DNA of 64,000 nt from a phage: the sequence record PZ386947.1, one strand, 5' to 3'. Positions 7,091 to 50,373 of this stretch are shown here, piece by piece; positions within the stretch are counted from its first letter, which is position 1; each line of letters opens with the position of its first letter. Both the position numbers and the translations under genes were made by a program. The notes below the pieces were generated by a model that saw nothing but the letters and a program-made list of their open reading frames with translations, was not told where the DNA came from and searched no databases.

Positions 7091-7380
7091 TTATCCTCTT
7101 TTAACTCTTGACGATAATAACATATCATAGTTTTCTGATCATGTACATATCGTTTTACATCATTGAGCCAAATACGAAATTCCTGGGAATCTTCGAATGG
7201 CATACCGACCCAAGCTTTACCATCAATAACTTTAACTTGCCAAAATAGTTTAGCTTCATCGTATGACTTTATCTGTACAGGCCAATTAGGATGAACTGTT
7301 TCTTTCTTTACTTCTAGAGGCTTTGTCGAACAACCAGCTAGAAGACCGATAGATAATATTACTGCTGATAGTCTAATCAT
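7081..7380 (-). CDS. outer-membrane spanin (Rz1-like lipoprotein)
   Basis: 99 aa; signal peptide with lipobox LLAGC; 4-nt overlap with upstream TM/coiled-coil ORF; corresponds to T4 pseT.2. Confidence 0.65.
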   Translation of the reverse strand: MIRLSAVILSIGLLAGCSTKPLEVKKETVHPNWPVQIKSYDEAKLFWQVKVIDGKAWVGMPFEDSQEFRIWLNDVKRYVHDQKTMICYYRQELKEDKCK

Positions 7381-42444: not shown

Positions 42445-42474
42445 ATTATACCACATCCTTGTGGTAAAGTAAAC
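42445..42474 (-). promoter_or_regulatory. early sigma70-type promoter for rIIA.1 / rIIA
   Basis: Minus strand GTTTAC (42474-42469), 18-nt spacer, perfect TATAAT (42450-42445). Confidence 0.55.
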
Positions 42475-44294
42475 TATTGGCTCATCCATTCTTTACGAAG
42501 ATCAGCATTATCTCCCATGAGCATTTCAAAAAGCTCTTTCCAGTTCTCAGGAAGTTTAACAACATCATATACTGGGTTTTGAATCATCTCACGATATTCA
42601 GATTTTTCCAAAGAGCCAAGTCCTTTAATATAACGGATGCTATGTTTAGGTAGAGCATCTTTGGCACTCTCATATTCAGCGACTGTATAAAACCATTCTT
42701 GTTTTTTACCGACCTGAGCGATGATTACAGGAGTTTTGACAAAGCGAATTCGTCCTTGCTCAAACAATTCTGGCCAATTACTAAAAAATCCGAGCAGAGA
42801 AGGATAAATGCTTCCTAGACCATCATGGTCAGCATCAGTCATAATAGCAATATTATGATAATTCAAGTTTTCAGCTTTTTCACCGAGAACTAATCCAGTG
42901 ATTGCGCAAATATCAAATAGTTCTTTGTTTTTAAGCATATCGGCATATGACATACCCCAGCTATTAAGAACTTTACCGCGCAATGGATAACCACCATGAA
43001 GTTCTTTATCACGAACATCAATAAGATATCCGATAGCTGAATCACCCTCAGTCAAGAACAATGTAGTGTCAGCATCTTTACCGCAAAGATTCGCTTTAAT
43101 ATGTTTATGAACCTTAGCTTTAGAAGCCTTTTTAGCTGCTTTAGTTTCTGCTGCTTTTTCTGCTGCCAATTTACGGGCCAAGGCAGCTTCAATAATTGGC
43201 ATCAAAATAGCTTCATTATTTAGAATAGCGCGTGAAATCTTTTTAGCATCAAGCTGAATATGACTACGAATTTCGCCAAATGGAGAAGTCAAACGCTCTT
43301 TAGTTTGAGAATCAAATCGCATGTTTTTCATATCACGGACAAACATAACGATAGTCAAACATTCTTTGACACGCGCTTTAGTCACATCAATTTTGAACTT
43401 ACGTTTGATTTGCGGAATAAGGTCTTCACAAATATCATCCATAACACAGTCAATGTGATGGCCACCATTCTTAGTGTGAATGTTATTCACATAAGTTAAT
43501 TGGCGAAATCCATCCGGTGAACGACCAACCGCAATAGAACAATTTTCTTGTTCTTGAACAATAGCATGTTCATCATACTGTCGTGCATATTTCTTAAAAT
43601 TGCCCTGAACCTTTTTACCATTAAAGGTAAATTGAATATCAGGATAAACAACAGCAAGTGTCTGGAGACGATCTAGTGTAATGTCAAGATAAACTTGGGA
43701 CAGCTCATTAGTTTCAAATGACATAAAATCAGGAATGAAAGTAACACGAGTTCCTTTCCATTTTCCAGGAATAGTTTCCCAGGATTTATTTTCCATGCCA
43801 TTTGAACAACGAACTACAATATTATTTTGACCATCGCCAGTTTCACCGACAAACATCACAGAAAAAATGTTAGTTAAACTAGAACCAACACCATTCATAC
43901 CACCGGTGACGCGTTCTTTATCATCACCAAAGTTACCACCTGCTTTTGGAATAGTCCAAGCAGCAACTGGGCCAGGAATTTCTTCACCGGTAGGTGTTTT
44001 AACCATCGCTTGTGGAATACCGCGACCGTTATCTTCAACTGTTACCTGATTATTTTTAATGGTAACATTAATTTTATTTGCGAATTTAAACTTAGTACGA
44101 ATACCTTCATCTACTGAGTTATCGATAATTTCATCAATAAGCTTAACAAGACCAGGTACATACTGAACACTTTCCCATTTACCAAACAGAAAGCGCTCAT
44201 GCATTTCATTAGCTGAAGAGCCAATGTACATGCCGCTACGCTTTTTGATATGTTCAATATCGCTCAGAATTTTAATTTCATTCTTAATCATCAC
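42474..44294 (-). CDS. 39: DNA topoisomerase II large subunit, unsplit (gp39 plus gp60 equivalent)
   Basis: 606 aa continuous GyrB-like ORF (ATPase domain plus TOPRIM); T4 splits this into gene 39 and gene 60, here it is one ORF. Confidence 0.9.
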   Translation of the reverse strand: MMIKNEIKILSDIEHIKKRSGMYIGSSANEMHERFLFGKWESVQYVPGLVKLIDEIIDNSVDEGIRTKFKFANKINVTIKNNQVTVEDNGRGIPQAMVKTPTGEEIPGPVAAWTIPKAGGNFGDDKERVTGGMNGVGSSLTNIFSVMFVGETGDGQNNIVVRCSNGMENKSWETIPGKWKGTRVTFIPDFMSFETNELSQVYLDITLDRLQTLAVVYPDIQFTFNGKKVQGNFKKYARQYDEHAIVQEQENCSIAVGRSPDGFRQLTYVNNIHTKNGGHHIDCVMDDICEDLIPQIKRKFKIDVTKARVKECLTIVMFVRDMKNMRFDSQTKERLTSPFGEIRSHIQLDAKKISRAILNNEAILMPIIEAALARKLAAEKAAETKAAKKASKAKVHKHIKANLCGKDADTTLFLTEGDSAIGYLIDVRDKELHGGYPLRGKVLNSWGMSYADMLKNKELFDICAITGLVLGEKAENLNYHNIAIMTDADHDGLGSIYPSLLGFFSNWPELFEQGRIRFVKTPVIIAQVGKKQEWFYTVAEYESAKDALPKHSIRYIKGLGSLEKSEYREMIQNPVYDVVKLPENWKELFEMLMGDNADLRKEWMSQ

Positions 44295-45179: not shown

Positions 45180-45599
45180 TTATTCCTTAAAGTGTGCTTT
45201 CAACATCTGATACAAGGACCATGCCTGTTCATTATTTTCAATAGTAACTTTCATGACCGGGAATTCTGTGAAATCTTCTATTTGTTCTTGCTCTTCCTGC
45301 TTTTGCTCTTCGGACGCTTGATATGGATTTCCAACTTCGTCAAAGAACTCTGCTTCATTCGTGGAGAGCCAGATAAAGTTTTCATCAAGGATATCACCGC
45401 CTGTTGCGTATCCAACCGTGCCAGTAGATGTCACAATTTTAGTAGGACGACTGAGATGGTCAACATCTAAAATTTTAAAAGGTTCCATACCTAAACGTCG
45501 TGCGTAGATTCCGTTATCAGTATGGTCTTTAATAAAAGCTTCTTGAGCTTGTTTATTTTTAAATTGATACCATTTATTAACTTCAAATCTAATAGCCAT
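45180..45599 (-). CDS. hypothetical protein (possibly goF-like)
   Basis: 139 aa ORF at the position of T4 goF; assignment is by position and length only. Confidence 0.35.
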
Positions 45600-45814
45600 T
45601 AATAAATTTCCTTCCAGTAAGTTGTACCGTCTTCAGTGATTTCACGGAATACATCATAAATCGGTTGTTTATCACCAACCTTTTCATACACATAAACCGA
45701 AGTCAAGTGAGTAAACTTGATGGTGTGTTCCTTTTTAACTACTACCAAATCTGGATCAAATAATACATCTTCAAATTCGTCATTAGTGCAATTCTGAACA
45801 ATTTTACGTTTCAT
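45599..45814 (-). CDS. hypothetical protein (possibly cef-like)
   Basis: 71 aa ORF, same length as T4 Cef; positional assignment only. Confidence 0.3.
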
Positions 45815-45827
45815 TACAATTTCCTCA

Positions 45828-46109
45828 TTAATTGAACAGTGGAGCGATGCGTTTCAGAAGAGTAGCAGCACCTTTGGCAAATTTTACATCATGAAAAACA
45901 GTTTCTTCTTCCGTTACAACACGAGCTTTAATGTTTTCACAATCCCAATTTTTGCGAACAATCTTCAAAAGCTGCAGTAAATCTTTACATTCAGCAATAT
46001 CGATAACACATCCACGAGAATCTTCCATTATCGCACGATAACCGTAAGCCATACCATAATCGTTGAAAGATTGCTCGATGATAATTAAGTTTTCCATTTT
46101 ATTCTCCAA
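45828..46109 (-). CDS. hypothetical protein (motB.x)
   Basis: 93 aa ORF. Confidence 0.35.
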   Translation of the reverse strand: MENKMENLIIIEQSFNDYGMAYGYRAIMEDSRGCVIDIAECKDLLQLLKIVRKNWDCENIKARVVTEEETVFHDVKFAKGAATLLKRIAPLFN

Positions 46110-46194
46110 GTTGTTTTCTGTATCAGTAGTTGATATTGATATAGTACCATAATCAACTACTGATGTATATAGTTTTATGAAAAAATTTTAAACT

Positions 46195-46686
46195 TTATGC
46201 ATAGAGAGCATTGCTATAGTGTTTAATCCAACTTTCAGGAATGACTTTGTATGTTCCTAAAAATACCACATTGTATAACTTAACGCCATCTTCTACCCAT
46301 TGATCGGTAATATATCCACACATAGCGCGAGTACGCCGAGGAAGTGGTTGTCCACCTTCGATAAATTTAAACTCATAAGGAGCAATGAACTTAATAGCTT
46401 TACCGAGTTTCCACTTAAAGTCTACACCTACATGCGAAGTATCAATCGTTTCAATTCCTTTAGCAGGAACAGCTTTCAAAAACGCAGATTCAAGAAATTT
46501 CGCGCGAACATAACCAAACTGAGGTTTAGACTTTCCATCTTTAGGAATGATACGCACTTTTACTTCAGAATCTTCATCTTTAACACCATGTTTAAGCTGA
46601 ATGCTTACAATTTCAACCAATTTTCCTGCTGCTTTAGAACGGGATTTATCAGATACACGAGCAATTTCACCAATATTAATAATCAT
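46195..46686 (-). CDS. motB: MotB-like DNA-binding protein
   Basis: 163 aa (T4 MotB 162 aa) at the expected position upstream of dexA cluster; early promoter directly upstream. Confidence 0.5.
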   Translation of the reverse strand: MIINIGEIARVSDKSRSKAAGKLVEIVSIQLKHGVKDEDSEVKVRIIPKDGKSKPQFGYVRAKFLESAFLKAVPAKGIETIDTSHVGVDFKWKLGKAIKFIAPYEFKFIEGGQPLPRRTRAMCGYITDQWVEDGVKLYNVVFLGTYKVIPESWIKHYSNALYA

Positions 46687-46730
46687 AGTTATCTCTCACT
46701 TGTTAAAAAGATTTTATACTCCACGGGACC

Positions 46731-46760
46731 ATTATACTCTGGTCCCAAGAGTTTGTAAAC
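46731..46760 (-). promoter_or_regulatory. early sigma70-type promoter for motB
   Basis: Minus strand GTTTAC (46760-46755), 18-nt spacer, TATAAT (46736-46731); -10 lies in the loop of inverted repeat GGGACC/GGTCCC. Confidence 0.5.
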
Positions 46761-46762
46761 TA

Positions 46763-47302
46763 TTAATTTAAAATAGCTACCACCGCACTACGAGGTACTA
46801 CACTAAAATCACCTGCATGAACAACGTTCAGAAGTTCAACACCATCTTCAATCCATTGGTCTGTTACCCAACCACAGACCGAAATAAATGGAGTCTTGAT
46901 AGCTACCGCACGAGTTAGAAGGTCAGTAGGATCGCATTCTTGAAAGAGGATGAACTCTGCTTCAAAAACTATAGTTTTAATTACTTCATCATTATCTAAA
47001 CGGTGCACTCGAATCACGTAAGCTTTATTCTTATCATGCCAGTTACTTTTTGAAAAGCTTTTAACCACAAACTCGCCTTCACCAAAAACATTAGTCAATG
47101 CTTTATAACCCAAATTTAGTTCAGTAGTTTTAATTTCAGTTTCAGCCAGTTTGTAGATTTTGCCGATTTCAATAGCGGTAGTCATAGTAGGTTCCTTAAT
47201 TTCCAGTGGTTTAACAGGGCATACATAAGTGCTTACAACATCAAAATCAATCAGTTTAGCTACCGGATTTGGTATGTATTCAGGATTATAATTAAATTTC
47301 AT
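46763..47302 (-). CDS. MotB-paralogous protein
   Basis: 179 aa; C-terminal segment CGWVTDQWIEDGVELLNVV parallels CGYITDQWVEDGVKLYNVV of the adjacent MotB-like ORF. Confidence 0.4.
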   Translation of the reverse strand: MKFNYNPEYIPNPVAKLIDFDVVSTYVCPVKPLEIKEPTMTTAIEIGKIYKLAETEIKTTELNLGYKALTNVFGEGEFVVKSFSKSNWHDKNKAYVIRVHRLDNDEVIKTIVFEAEFILFQECDPTDLLTRAVAIKTPFISVCGWVTDQWIEDGVELLNVVHAGDFSVVPRSAVVAILN

Positions 47303-47304
47303 AA

Positions 47305-47844
47305 TTATCTCATTTCAATAAAATCTATGAGTTCAGCATGCGATTTGCGGAACATTACTTGGTGCCCACCAATGATAACTTCATCTTCAGGAACTTCGTA
47401 TACAGCGAGATAAAATCCTTTAGAAGATAATTCTTCCCGCTCTTCTCGTGTGAACCATCTCATCATATCATATTCACTAGCGAAAGCAAAATGATAAAGA
47501 GCTATAAACCACCCTGGAATATGATATTCTACTCCAACATAATCTTTCTTGAACTTAGTATTAATTACTATATTAGCGTTTTTAACTAATAGTTTATCTT
47601 CGTGTGGTAAAGGAATTCTTTTATTATTATCGCTATGATGCATAAAATTAGGTCTGTCATAACCTACGTGTAATAGCCACTCTTCGCTCCATGAATCTAT
47701 TATACTCCTGTACGGCGTTATTTGAACACAAAGATTTCGACGTATTGTTATAGCATCTTCATAATCAAGAATACTAAACGATGATTCAACACGATAAATT
47801 TTCATTTTATTATCCTCAGTAGCTATGGTGTTATAATACCACAA
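47305..47844 (-). CDS. hypothetical protein (dexA-downstream)
   Basis: 179 aa ORF; early promoter GTTTAC...TGGTATTAT at about 47830-47865 upstream. Confidence 0.4.
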   Translation of the reverse strand: MWYYNTIATEDNKMKIYRVESSFSILDYEDAITIRRNLCVQITPYRSIIDSWSEEWLLHVGYDRPNFMHHSDNNKRIPLPHEDKLLVKNANIVINTKFKKDYVGVEYHIPGWFIALYHFAFASEYDMMRWFTREEREELSSKGFYLAVYEVPEDEVIIGGHQVMFRKSHAELIDFIEMR

Positions 47845-47868
47845 CTAACCGAGGAAGTAAACAACTTT

Positions 47869-48552
47869 TTATCGTTTTGTTGGAAGAGATAGAGGATCGC
47901 ATTCTTCCTCTGACGGAGCATCTTCAAGACCCATAGCATATCGCAAAGCATACTTCATCATCAGAATGTCTTTCGCACAGTCATGAATAGAATCATGCGC
48001 AACGAATCCATCTAAAGTTCCCTTTGGAAGAGGACATGTGGTCATATCACGAACAAGCAGAAGTGCTTCAATTCTGGTACGAATATCACGCTGATTCCAA
48101 AATTTACATGGTTCTAACTTAAATGTGTCAAGCTCATTCTCAGATACACCATTAAGACGCTGAATATCACGAATGAGATCGACTAAAATTGGAAAATCAA
48201 ATGACATTCCACGACACCAGCCTTGAGATTTCCAAGGATCGATATTATGTGCATTAATGTAATCATTAAATTTTGCAATACCATCGATAGTGCTTACATC
48301 TTCATCTGATGGTGCAATATTTTTTCGAGCTTCAGGAGATTGGTTCTTCCACCATTCAATAGTGCTTTTAGTAAAAAGACGATGTCCTTTTTGGCTTTTT
48401 AAATCAAATTTGATTTTAATGCCGCGTGAAACTAATTCATCAAATGTTTCAACTACTTCTGGGTTAGGGTCAAAAGCAATTACAGCTAAATCAATAACAG
48501 CTGCCTTTTCGCCGCTTCCCATTGTTTCAAAATCTATAATAAAATCAAACAT
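47869..48552 (-). CDS. dexA: exonuclease A (DEDD-type 3-prime to 5-prime exonuclease)
   Basis: 227 aa as in T4 DexA; N-terminal Exo I-like motif IIDFETMG. Confidence 0.8.
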   Translation of the reverse strand: MFDFIIDFETMGSGEKAAVIDLAVIAFDPNPEVVETFDELVSRGIKIKFDLKSQKGHRLFTKSTIEWWKNQSPEARKNIAPSDEDVSTIDGIAKFNDYINAHNIDPWKSQGWCRGMSFDFPILVDLIRDIQRLNGVSENELDTFKLEPCKFWNQRDIRTRIEALLLVRDMTTCPLPKGTLDGFVAHDSIHDCAKDILMMKYALRYAMGLEDAPSEEECDPLSLPTKR

Positions 48553-49053: not shown

Positions 49054-50373
49054 TCATACATAAAACACATCATAACGACCACGGGTAACACCAACATAAA
49101 GAAGTTGTTGAGCCAATTCAGCATCTGCATAATGAATACAAGGCGTATAAATGAAAGCACGGTCTACAGACATGCCCTGTGCTTTATGGAATGTTGATGC
49201 AGGAAGTGCTTTCACTTTACTAAACTGTGATTTAGCATCCCAAAAATCACTCCATGGAGCTTTTCCGCCTTTGTTCCAATTTTTATAAGTTTCTGCCGTT
49301 TTACCTAAAAATAGGTTAAACTTATACAGTTCTTCATCAGATGAAATTATTTTAATCTTTTCACGATAATATTCATCATCGCCATAAGTTTCTACTGTTA
49401 AATCCCAATGACGAATTAAGTATTCTCCAGGAACACCACGAGCTTTAACAAACGTCGATGTATACTCTGCTTCTATAATACGAACTAATTGTCCGTTATT
49501 AAAAATAATTTCTAGCACAGGCTTTCCATCAATTTTATATGTTTTAATTAATGGTTCCTGCATTACAATAATTTCACCGACAATAAAATCTTTATCAGTT
49601 TCAAAAATCTTTTTACGAATAATGCTATTTAACTTGTCAACAGATTTATTCGTAAATGCCATTACGCGATTTTCAAACAAATCATCTAGTGATTTTACGA
49701 TTGAAAAATAATTTACCATAAAATCGCGTAAAGCGGTATCACCTGTAAATCCACGTACTCCATGCCCGTCAACAATTTTATCATAAATCCACTTACCGTT
49801 ACGAACATCAGTAGCTACATCAATAATAGGAGCATTACTGCGTTTAACTTCAGTAAGTTCACACTGATAAAAATCTTTGTGTGTAAAGAACGGACTGATA
49901 TAAGCAGTGTTTTCTCCTGGGTCAACAGGTCTAATTTGCTTATTATCACCTATTCCAATTATAGTACACCACGGCGGGATAGTTGAAAGCAGAATTTTAA
50001 ATAGCTTTCTATCATACATTGACACTTCGTCGCAGATTAATACCCTGCATTTAGCTAAATCTGGTACTTCCTTCTGCTCAAAAAGAACATTTTCTTCATA
50101 TGTTACTGGGTTAATTTTAAGAATACTATGAATAGTACTCGCTTCTTTCCCTGATAGTTTTGAAAGAATCTTTTTAGCCGCATGCGTAGGAGCTGCTAAA
50201 ATAATACCAGTTTCACCCGTAGATATTAAAGCTTCAATGATGAATTTAGTAAGAGTAGTCTTACCGGTACCAGCAGGTCCATTAATAGTTACATGATGTT
50301 TCTTTTCTTTAATAGCCCTCATAACGATGTTAAAGGCATTTTTCTGGCCTTCTGTCAAATCATCAAATGTCAT
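49054..50373 (-). CDS. dda: Dda DNA helicase (SF1B)
   Basis: 439 aa as in T4 Dda; Walker A GPAGTGKTT. Confidence 0.9.
   Translation of the reverse strand: MTFDDLTEGQKNAFNIVMRAIKEKKHHVTINGPAGTGKTTLTKFIIEALISTGETGIILAAPTHAAKKILSKLSGKEASTIHSILKINPVTYEENVLFEQKEVPDLAKCRVLICDEVSMYDRKLFKILLSTIPPWCTIIGIGDNKQIRPVDPGENTAYISPFFTHKDFYQCELTEVKRSNAPIIDVATDVRNGKWIYDKIVDGHGVRGFTGDTALRDFMVNYFSIVKSLDDLFENRVMAFTNKSVDKLNSIIRKKIFETDKDFIVGEIIVMQEPLIKTYKIDGKPVLEIIFNNGQLVRIIEAEYTSTFVKARGVPGEYLIRHWDLTVETYGDDEYYREKIKIISSDEELYKFNLFLGKTAETYKNWNKGGKAPWSDFWDAKSQFSKVKALPASTFHKAQGMSVDRAFIYTPCIHYADAELAQQLLYVGVTRGRYDVFYV

Follow-up and report, generated by a model that had tools for sequence, protein, structure and literature searches.

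MotB of phage T4 is an early, basic protein which binds DNA tightly and irrespective of its sequence. It is co-purified with H-NS and StpA and changes the footprint of H-NS on DNA (PMC6070864, PMC7827196). Its over-expression relieves H-NS-repressed host genes; the protein is toxic to the host, and the burst size was found to be doubled (PMC6070864, PMC7827196). Both the DNA binding and the co-purification with H-NS were measured on whole MotB. The gene motB.1 is located immediately upstream of motB, and the two products were described as having a common C-terminal domain and differing N-terminal domains, one gene possibly being a duplicate of the other (Son et al. 2021, PMC7827196). In the same study, MotB homologues were sorted into four categories by their N-terminal type. 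The N-terminal domain of T4 MotB.1 was described as an LSm/SH3-like barrel of the GoF / MotB.1 / Frd.2 family (Kim et al. 2025, PMC12152347); under laboratory conditions no phenotype was seen on deletion of motB.1, and the reporter assay used in that study showed no effect of the protein (PMC12152347). Here we analysed the corresponding gene pair in sequence record PZ386947.1, a stretch of phage DNA of 64,000 nucleotides (the window), where two open reading frames (ORFs) of 163 and 179 amino acids (aa) lie in tandem on the minus strand between positions 46195 and 47302. It is already published that MotB and MotB.1 are related, that this relationship is confined to T4-like phages and that it may stem from a duplication, and our finding is a rediscovery. 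It matters little in itself, since the core relationship is in the literature; the new points are refinements and passing observations, above all a frameshift in the T4 reference sequence.

Our preferred reading, which we regard as highly probable, is that this locus encodes two early two-domain beta-barrel proteins which have one ancient C-terminal barrel in common and whose N-terminal barrels are unrelated, as a result of duplication and replacement of the N-terminal domain. The 163-aa ORF (46195-46686 including the stop codon, minus strand) matches Pfam PF17613 (motB, modifier of transcription; 162 profile positions, gathering cut-off 25 bits) with 337.7 bits and E=1.3e-101, residues 1-163 aligning to profile positions 1-162. 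It is assigned to PHROG 1671, shows 92% identity to T4 MotB (NP_049626) over the full length and is annotated as 'modifier of transcription' in Shigella phage CM8. By its full-length identity and its neighbourhood, which is the same as in T4, this ORF is the orthologue of T4 MotB. The 179-aa ORF (46763-47302 including the stop codon, minus strand) matches PHROG 2333 at 5e-81, is filed apart from MotB as phrog_2333 and carries the annotation 'motB-like protein' in CM8. It is the positional equivalent of T4 motB.1, between motB.2 and motB, and has about 120 close relatives of 176-183 aa. PF17613 reaches 34.3 bits on this protein and covers only residues 141-174 (profile positions 120-153 of 162); as far as the profile match goes, the protein has the C-terminal module of the motB family and not the whole family architecture. 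By its C-terminal domain and its adjacency to motB it belongs to the MotB.1 group of Son et al. 2021, whose Table S4 lists the close relatives RB14 ORF010c and UFV13 g011 (PMC7827196). The C-terminal domain of RB14 ORF010c is 100% identical to that of the window protein, which we call the sibling in the following.

The resemblance of the two C-termini is most pronounced in a core motif, CGYITDQWVEDGVKLYNVV in MotB (aa 123-141, C123-V141; 46264-46320, minus strand) and CGWVTDQWIEDGVELLNVV in the sibling (aa 143-161, C143-V161; 46820-46876, minus strand), with 14 of 19 residues identical. BLASTP aligns MotB and the sibling with 28/66 identities at E=3e-13, and the Smith-Waterman score of 117 stands against 29.5 +/- 4.8 (maximum 56) in 2000 shuffles, corresponding to z=18. 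When the C-terminal domains of the two families were compared profile to profile, hhalign gave a probability of 99.4% and E=2.4e-21, pairing MotB L94-Y159 with sibling L129-I178/179. According to this alignment, the two proteins share their C-terminal domain in full, about 50-65 aa, the MotB copy carrying an insertion of 13 aa. The shared unit corresponds to the C-terminal part of PF17613 and has the conserved core G-[WY]-x-T-D-Q-W-x-E-D-G. The N-terminal domains of both proteins showed no detectable similarity to each other in profile comparison at the sequence level. An internal duplication, in which the C-terminal domain would be akin to either N-terminal domain, was rejected at the same level (hhalign probability <=6%), and hmmsearch of the six-frame translation of the window revealed no third copy of the module (next match E=0.69).

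A preliminary description of this DNA, made from the sequence alone, had noticed two tandem ORFs with a nearly identical C-terminal segment and differing N-termini. These observations are confirmed, and the shared motif, whose statistical significance had been left as the deciding point, turned out to be clearly significant. Its label 'MotB-like' for the first ORF is too weak in view of the Pfam score and the identity to T4 MotB. The sibling had been placed downstream, which is correct in plus-strand coordinates only; both genes are read from the minus strand, so that transcription passes through the 179-aa gene first and motB follows it. Ala-Arg and Pro-Arg-Arg had been proposed as common signatures, and neither of them held. 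Pro-Arg-Arg occurs in MotB only, inside the 13-aa insertion, and is missing in T4 MotB. A Thr-Arg-Ala is shared in the pairwise alignment. There, BLAST pairs MotB 96-110 with sibling 109-121; this pairing and the 'TRA' match were replaced by the profile alignment, in which sibling L129-T-R-A stands opposite MotB L94-G-K-A and the residues concerned are not equivalent.

The two proteins differ markedly in charge. MotB as a whole has an isoelectric point (pI) of 9.6, and its basic charge resides mostly in the N-terminal domain and in the MotB-specific loop. The former, a small KOW/SH3-like barrel (aa 1-68; 46483-46686, minus strand), has a pI of 9.75 and a conserved loop V-S-x-x-S-R-S-K-A-A-G. 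The C-terminal barrel of MotB (aa 92-160; 46207-46413, minus strand) is interrupted between strands 1 and 2 of the module by the basic loop insertion FIEGGQPLPRRTR (aa 108-120; 46327-46365, minus strand), which was recognized as a gap in the hhalign alignment and holds the Pro-Arg-Arg; this loop reads EGGQPLPRRTR in the window and KDDGRVVYTR in T4 MotB. Invariant in the core among 74 MotB sequences are D128, W130, E132, G134, K136 and Y138. The sibling, in turn, has a pI of 5.0. Its C-terminal barrel (aa 124-179; 46766-46933, minus strand) is acidic, with a pI of 4.3 and three Lys and Arg residues versus seven Asp and Glu residues; in its core, G144, D148, Q149, W150, E156 and L158 do not vary among 39 MotB.1-type sequences. 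The N-terminal domain of the sibling (aa 42-123; 46934-47179, minus strand) was characterised from the AlphaFold2 model and by Foldseek comparison with T4 MotB.1, and is preceded by an extension of 41 aa (47180-47302, minus strand) which is predicted to be disordered.

Structures of both full-length proteins were modelled by AlphaFold2 with family alignments. The MotB model (mean predicted local distance difference test score, pLDDT, of 80.5) comprises an N-terminal barrel with strands within aa 8-67, a disordered linker at aa 70-83 and a C-terminal barrel with strands at 97-108, 117-132, 135-142 and 145-150, a short helix and a last strand at 154-157. In the sibling model (mean pLDDT 75.4; below 50 over aa 1-41), the N-terminal domain at aa 45-123 shows a beta-alpha-beta-beta-beta-helix-beta topology, and the C-terminal barrel has strands at 132-136, 141-152, 155-162 and 165-170, again a short helix and a last strand at 174-178. 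The check by structure prediction that had been suggested for this pair thus revealed the same strand pattern in both C-terminal barrels. In these models the shared barrel is predicted to be SH3/Tudor/KOW-like, with five strands and the short helix between strands 4 and 5. In a cold-shock-like oligonucleotide/oligosaccharide-binding (OB) fold (SCOPe b.40.4.5), the helix of the five-stranded barrel lies between strands 3 and 4; the predicted topology suggests an SH3-like fold and not an OB-fold for the shared domain. No relatives with solved structures were found by sequence at E up to 10, and an NCBIfam search gave no relevant match. No match to a Pfam KOW (PF00467) or Tudor profile appeared at E up to 1, and for KOW this includes the N-terminal domain of MotB.

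The comparison of the coding sequences gives an indication of the age of the pair. Within the ungapped core of 38 codons, motB and its sibling share 53% of the nucleotides; third positions are identical in 14 of 38 cases (37%), which is near random, and only 9 of the 19 codons for identical residues match. Such low identity argues that the duplication is old and that gene conversion is not responsible, and on these grounds it is ancient. Moreover, each family has fixed its own residues: K136, Y138, F142 and E151 are present in 74/74 MotB sequences, whereas the MotB.1-type proteins have E156 and L158 (39/39), H162 (38/39) and R171 (38/38). This includes a reciprocal swap of charges, K136/E151 in MotB versus E156/R171 in the MotB.1 type. 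The codons concerned are located at 46279-46281 and 46234-46236 in motB and at 46835-46837 and 46790-46792 in the sibling gene (all minus strand). The swap could stem from an internal salt bridge that was reversed, or could mark an interface of complementary charge.

Under the preferred reading, an old duplication would have given rise to the motB/motB.1 pair, followed by replacement of an N-terminal domain, and the motB.1 locus would keep exchanging N-terminal cassettes between phages. MotB would then have a basic, KOW-like N-terminal barrel and the sibling an acidic one of LSm/SH3-like type. The affinity of MotB for DNA would come mainly from two basic parts, the N-terminal barrel and the loop in the C-terminal barrel, and the barrel core would serve as a common scaffold or as a partner-binding surface, not as a DNA-binding surface by itself. 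Asp, Glu and aromatic residues abound in the common core; together with the acidic character of the sibling, this makes it unlikely that the core alone is a general DNA-binding surface. The acidic MotB.1-type protein may use this barrel to bind another ligand, or may act jointly with MotB. The preliminary description had suggested that a module binding DNA or nucleoid proteins was duplicated and then diverged. Duplication and divergence stand, and are also published; the binding label can be kept only as a hypothesis, the sibling copy being acidic. Three points weigh against our interpretation. The DNA affinity of the N-terminal domain and the loop is assigned from charge alone, the overall confidence of the AlphaFold2 models is moderate (predicted template modelling score 0.48-0.50), and homology of the two types of MotB.1 N-terminal domains, which is treated below, rests only on structure and intermediate sequences.

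Different explanations of the shared segment have to be considered. Strong similarity extends over a short stretch of about 35-50 residues, and the same profile also matches unrelated repeat proteins with 'GYATEQWVED' repeats, as might be expected if a short motif matched by chance or through composition. The alignment statistics given above (z-score, BLASTP and hhalign E-values) and the same predicted strand pattern in both proteins refute this possibility, and a recent local duplication or gene conversion is contradicted by the low nucleotide identity, the near-random third positions and the family-fixed residues across dozens of phages; we attribute practically no weight to either. A cold-shock-like OB-fold was published for the module from HHpred results, and both paralogues would then bind DNA and act on H-NS-DNA complexes. 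We consider this reading unlikely. It is somewhat less probable still that the barrel is a module for dimerisation or hetero-association, by which the acidic MotB.1-type protein pairs with the toxic, basic MotB (PMC6070864) and modulates it, or competes with it for a host partner such as H-NS or StpA. The two genes are adjacent and co-oriented, at least about 693 of the 781 genomes carry both, the proteins have opposite net charges and the fixed reciprocal charge swap, and T4 MotB.1 runs as monomer and dimer on non-reducing gels (PMC12152347). However, the charge swap is equally explained by a reversed intramolecular salt bridge, the dimer on the non-reducing sodium dodecyl sulphate gel is possibly a disulphide artefact and was seen with a truncated form of 119 aa, and the deletion of motB.1 is without phenotype. 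A more far-reaching version, in which the barrel is an SH3/Tudor-like domain for partner binding or hetero-association instead of a DNA-binding OB-fold, the acidic protein works with or against MotB on a host target such as H-NS or StpA, and a motif in the N-terminal extension of the sibling (D-x-D-V-x-S-x-Y...K-P-L) acts as a separate docking peptide, appears similarly doubtful to us.

The truncated form of T4 MotB.1 deserves attention on its own. In the T4 reference genome (NC_000866 / AF158101), motB.1 (NC_000866.4, 7291-7650; to be compared with window positions 46766-46880) contains one extra G near position 7370, ATTGGAAGATGG versus ATTGAAGATGG. Owing to this base, translation stops after 119 aa (…GGWVTDQWIGRWR), halfway through the shared motif; the remainder (EDGVELLNVVHAGEYSVVPRSAVVAILN) is intact in the next frame. 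The base is missing from at least 11 other T4, T4T, RB55 and RB59 records; MT984581 annotates a MotB.1 of 143 aa, the length of the protein in re-sequenced T4 (QPI17238), and the 143-aa form is found on 256 contigs versus 2 for the 119-aa form. These comparisons indicate that the 119-aa reference protein (NP_049627 / UniProt P39415) is artefactually truncated. A recent study on MotB.1 describes a protein of 13.8 kDa (2025, PMC12152347), a mass which fits the 119-aa reference form and not the 143-aa form. If the barrel does serve for association, the published negative results on T4 MotB.1 would need to be repeated, because they were obtained with the 119-aa form, from which half of the barrel is missing. 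For work on T-even phages and H-NS, the refinements made here should be useful: the true domain boundaries, the suggested SH3-like fold, an acidic paralogue with swapped charges and the truncated T4 reference. Together, they alter the choice of constructs for tests of function.

The distribution of the C-terminal domain is very narrow. A search with its profile against 1.84 billion representative proteins yielded only 34 clusters, and in a phage collection the module was found at 1687 places in 781 records. Within these 781 records, the MotB N-terminal region is present as a single copy in 736 and a MotB.1-type C-terminal domain is present in 738, which means that at least about 693 genomes have both. 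The sibling C-terminal domain is 78% identical to that of T4 MotB.1 (tblastn) versus about 47% to that of MotB, and 34 of the last 36 residues agree with T4 MotB.1. The motB.1 locus is mosaic, as its C-termini are near-identical and its N-terminal domains lack BLAST similarity. Further architectures combine a KOW N-terminal domain with a MotB.1-type C-terminal domain, contain two tandem N-terminal domains or carry extra N-terminal domains. BLASTP detected no match between the N-terminal domains of the window type and the T4 type of MotB.1. With hhalign, a probability of 96% was reached when the bridging sequence P0303 was included and 0.5% when it was not, and the second N-terminal domain of P0235 links the window and T4 types weakly (E=1.8e-5 and E=0.014). 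A Foldseek search with the sibling retrieved the T4 MotB.1 model (P39415) from BFVD, a library of predicted viral structures, at E=1.8e-6 with a template modelling score of 0.60 normalised to the target. The two types are probably divergent versions of one fold.

Some proteins that were found alongside these searches are of a different kind. Large proteins of 450-2700 aa (P0244, P0245, P0250, P0252, P0254, P0255, P0258, P0259) carry many tandem repeats of the type 'SLSGYATEQWVEDKHYITGVDLS', and those with multiple matches (P0250, P0254, P0258 and others) look tail-fibre-like, with 'SGYATEQWVEDKHYITGVDL' repeats. They match the C-terminal domain profile via a stretch GY-x-T-[DE]-Q-W-V-E-D; as distant homologues they were set aside, the resemblance in a short motif being probably coincidental. 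A metagenome protein of 43 aa, P0251 (MKIYRVESSFSILDYEDGVELLNVVHAGDFSVVPRSAVVAILN), consists of the first 16 residues of MotB.2 and the last 27 of the MotB.1 C-terminal domain, joined at a common 'ED'. It appears to represent a natural deletion of most of motB.2 and motB.1, and recalls the 'Category 3' peptide of 29 aa in RB69 (Son et al. 2021, PMC7827196).

The N-terminal extension of the sibling contains the motif D-x-D-V-x-S-x-Y...K-P-L (aa 19-34; 47201-47248, minus strand), which is absent from MotB and T4 MotB.1. Its fuller form, D-x-D-[VI]-x-S-[MT]-Y-x-x-x-[VI]-K-P-L, was found in 114 of the 120 close relatives, where two alleles, DFDVVSTYVCPVKPL and DMDIASMYGTLVKPL, have diverged. Elsewhere among the MotB.1-type architectures, the motif occurs at internal sites between the N- and C-terminal domains, and it looks like a movable docking peptide. 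Met40 of the same ORF (47183-47185, minus strand) is an internal ATG that follows a strong Shine-Dalgarno-like AAGGA; the ATG at 47302 is preceded only by a weak GAG. A start at Met40 would give a form of 140 aa beginning exactly at the folded N-terminal domain, and such a form is annotated in some records (P0108, 140 aa). Both long and short isoforms may be made, and the conservation of the motif ahead of Met40 argues that the long form is translated.

The two genes are separated by a spacer of 76 nucleotides (46687-46762, minus strand), which is conserved in T4. Just upstream of motB, a consensus scan of the spacer detected a sigma-70-type promoter-like site (46731-46759, minus strand), a mere sequence match in which TTTACA and TATAAT are separated by 17 nucleotides, with 11 of 12 positions matching. 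A hairpin GGGACCA…TGGTCCC (about 46718-46752) overlaps the -10 box, and a region of 91 nucleotides with this hairpin folds at -26.4 kcal/mol (z=-4.2). An intrinsic terminator between both genes was considered as well; although the hairpin is stable, the scan of the spacer found no terminator with a T-tract. This hairpin may shield the motB.1 message at its 3′ end, or it may influence how the promoter is used.

The surrounding DNA is that of a T4-like phage. Over positions 45800-48000, the sequence matches that of Shigella phage CM8 (Tequatrovirus) with 100% identity, and hundreds of further T-even phages match it with 90-98%; judged by these identities the source is a T4-like phage of the genus Tequatrovirus. 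Every gene of this stretch is on the minus strand and the order is as in T4: gene 39 (42474-44294), goF (45180-45599), cef (45599-45814), a 93-aa ORF between cef and motB, then motB and its sibling, motB.2 (47305-47844), dexA (47869-48552) and dda (49054-50373). The succession 39 ... goF - cef - motB - motB.1 - motB.2 - dexA - dda agrees with NC_000866 and with CM8. Two annotation slips were noticed in passing: RefSeq labels the small T4 gene dexA.2 (NC_000866.4, 9143-9388) 'dextranase', and in the T6 record AP018814 the motB region (AP018814.1, 6161-6445) is labelled 'baseplate wedge subunit and tail pin'.

Among known structures, the closest likeness is to small SH3-like barrels of the Tudor, KOW, chromo and PWWP kinds, such as the tandem Tudor domains of 53BP1 (5zcj/3lgf), PHF19 (6wau) and the Spt5 KOW domain (5ohq); at 8-19% identity, this is a likeness at the level of the fold only. 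The translation factors eIF5A and EF-P also have a KOW-like SH3 barrel at the N-terminus, which is followed by OB domains. In MotB, the predicted topology of the C-terminal domain is SH3-like and not OB, there is no sequence similarity to these factors, and the function is unlike theirs. For the sibling N-terminal domain, a bent five-stranded barrel with one helix is predicted, which would be compatible with the bent five-stranded antiparallel sheet of the GoF / MotB.1 / Frd.2 family. The nearest relatives of the pair are those in T4 itself. In T4, too, motB lies between cef and motB.1, and its product has the two-domain layout seen in MotB of the window. T4 MotB.1 takes the same place directly upstream of motB and carries the same C-terminal domain with a DPTDLL lead-in as in the sibling; it has 143 aa compared to 179 aa in the window, where only the sibling bears the disordered extension of 41 aa.
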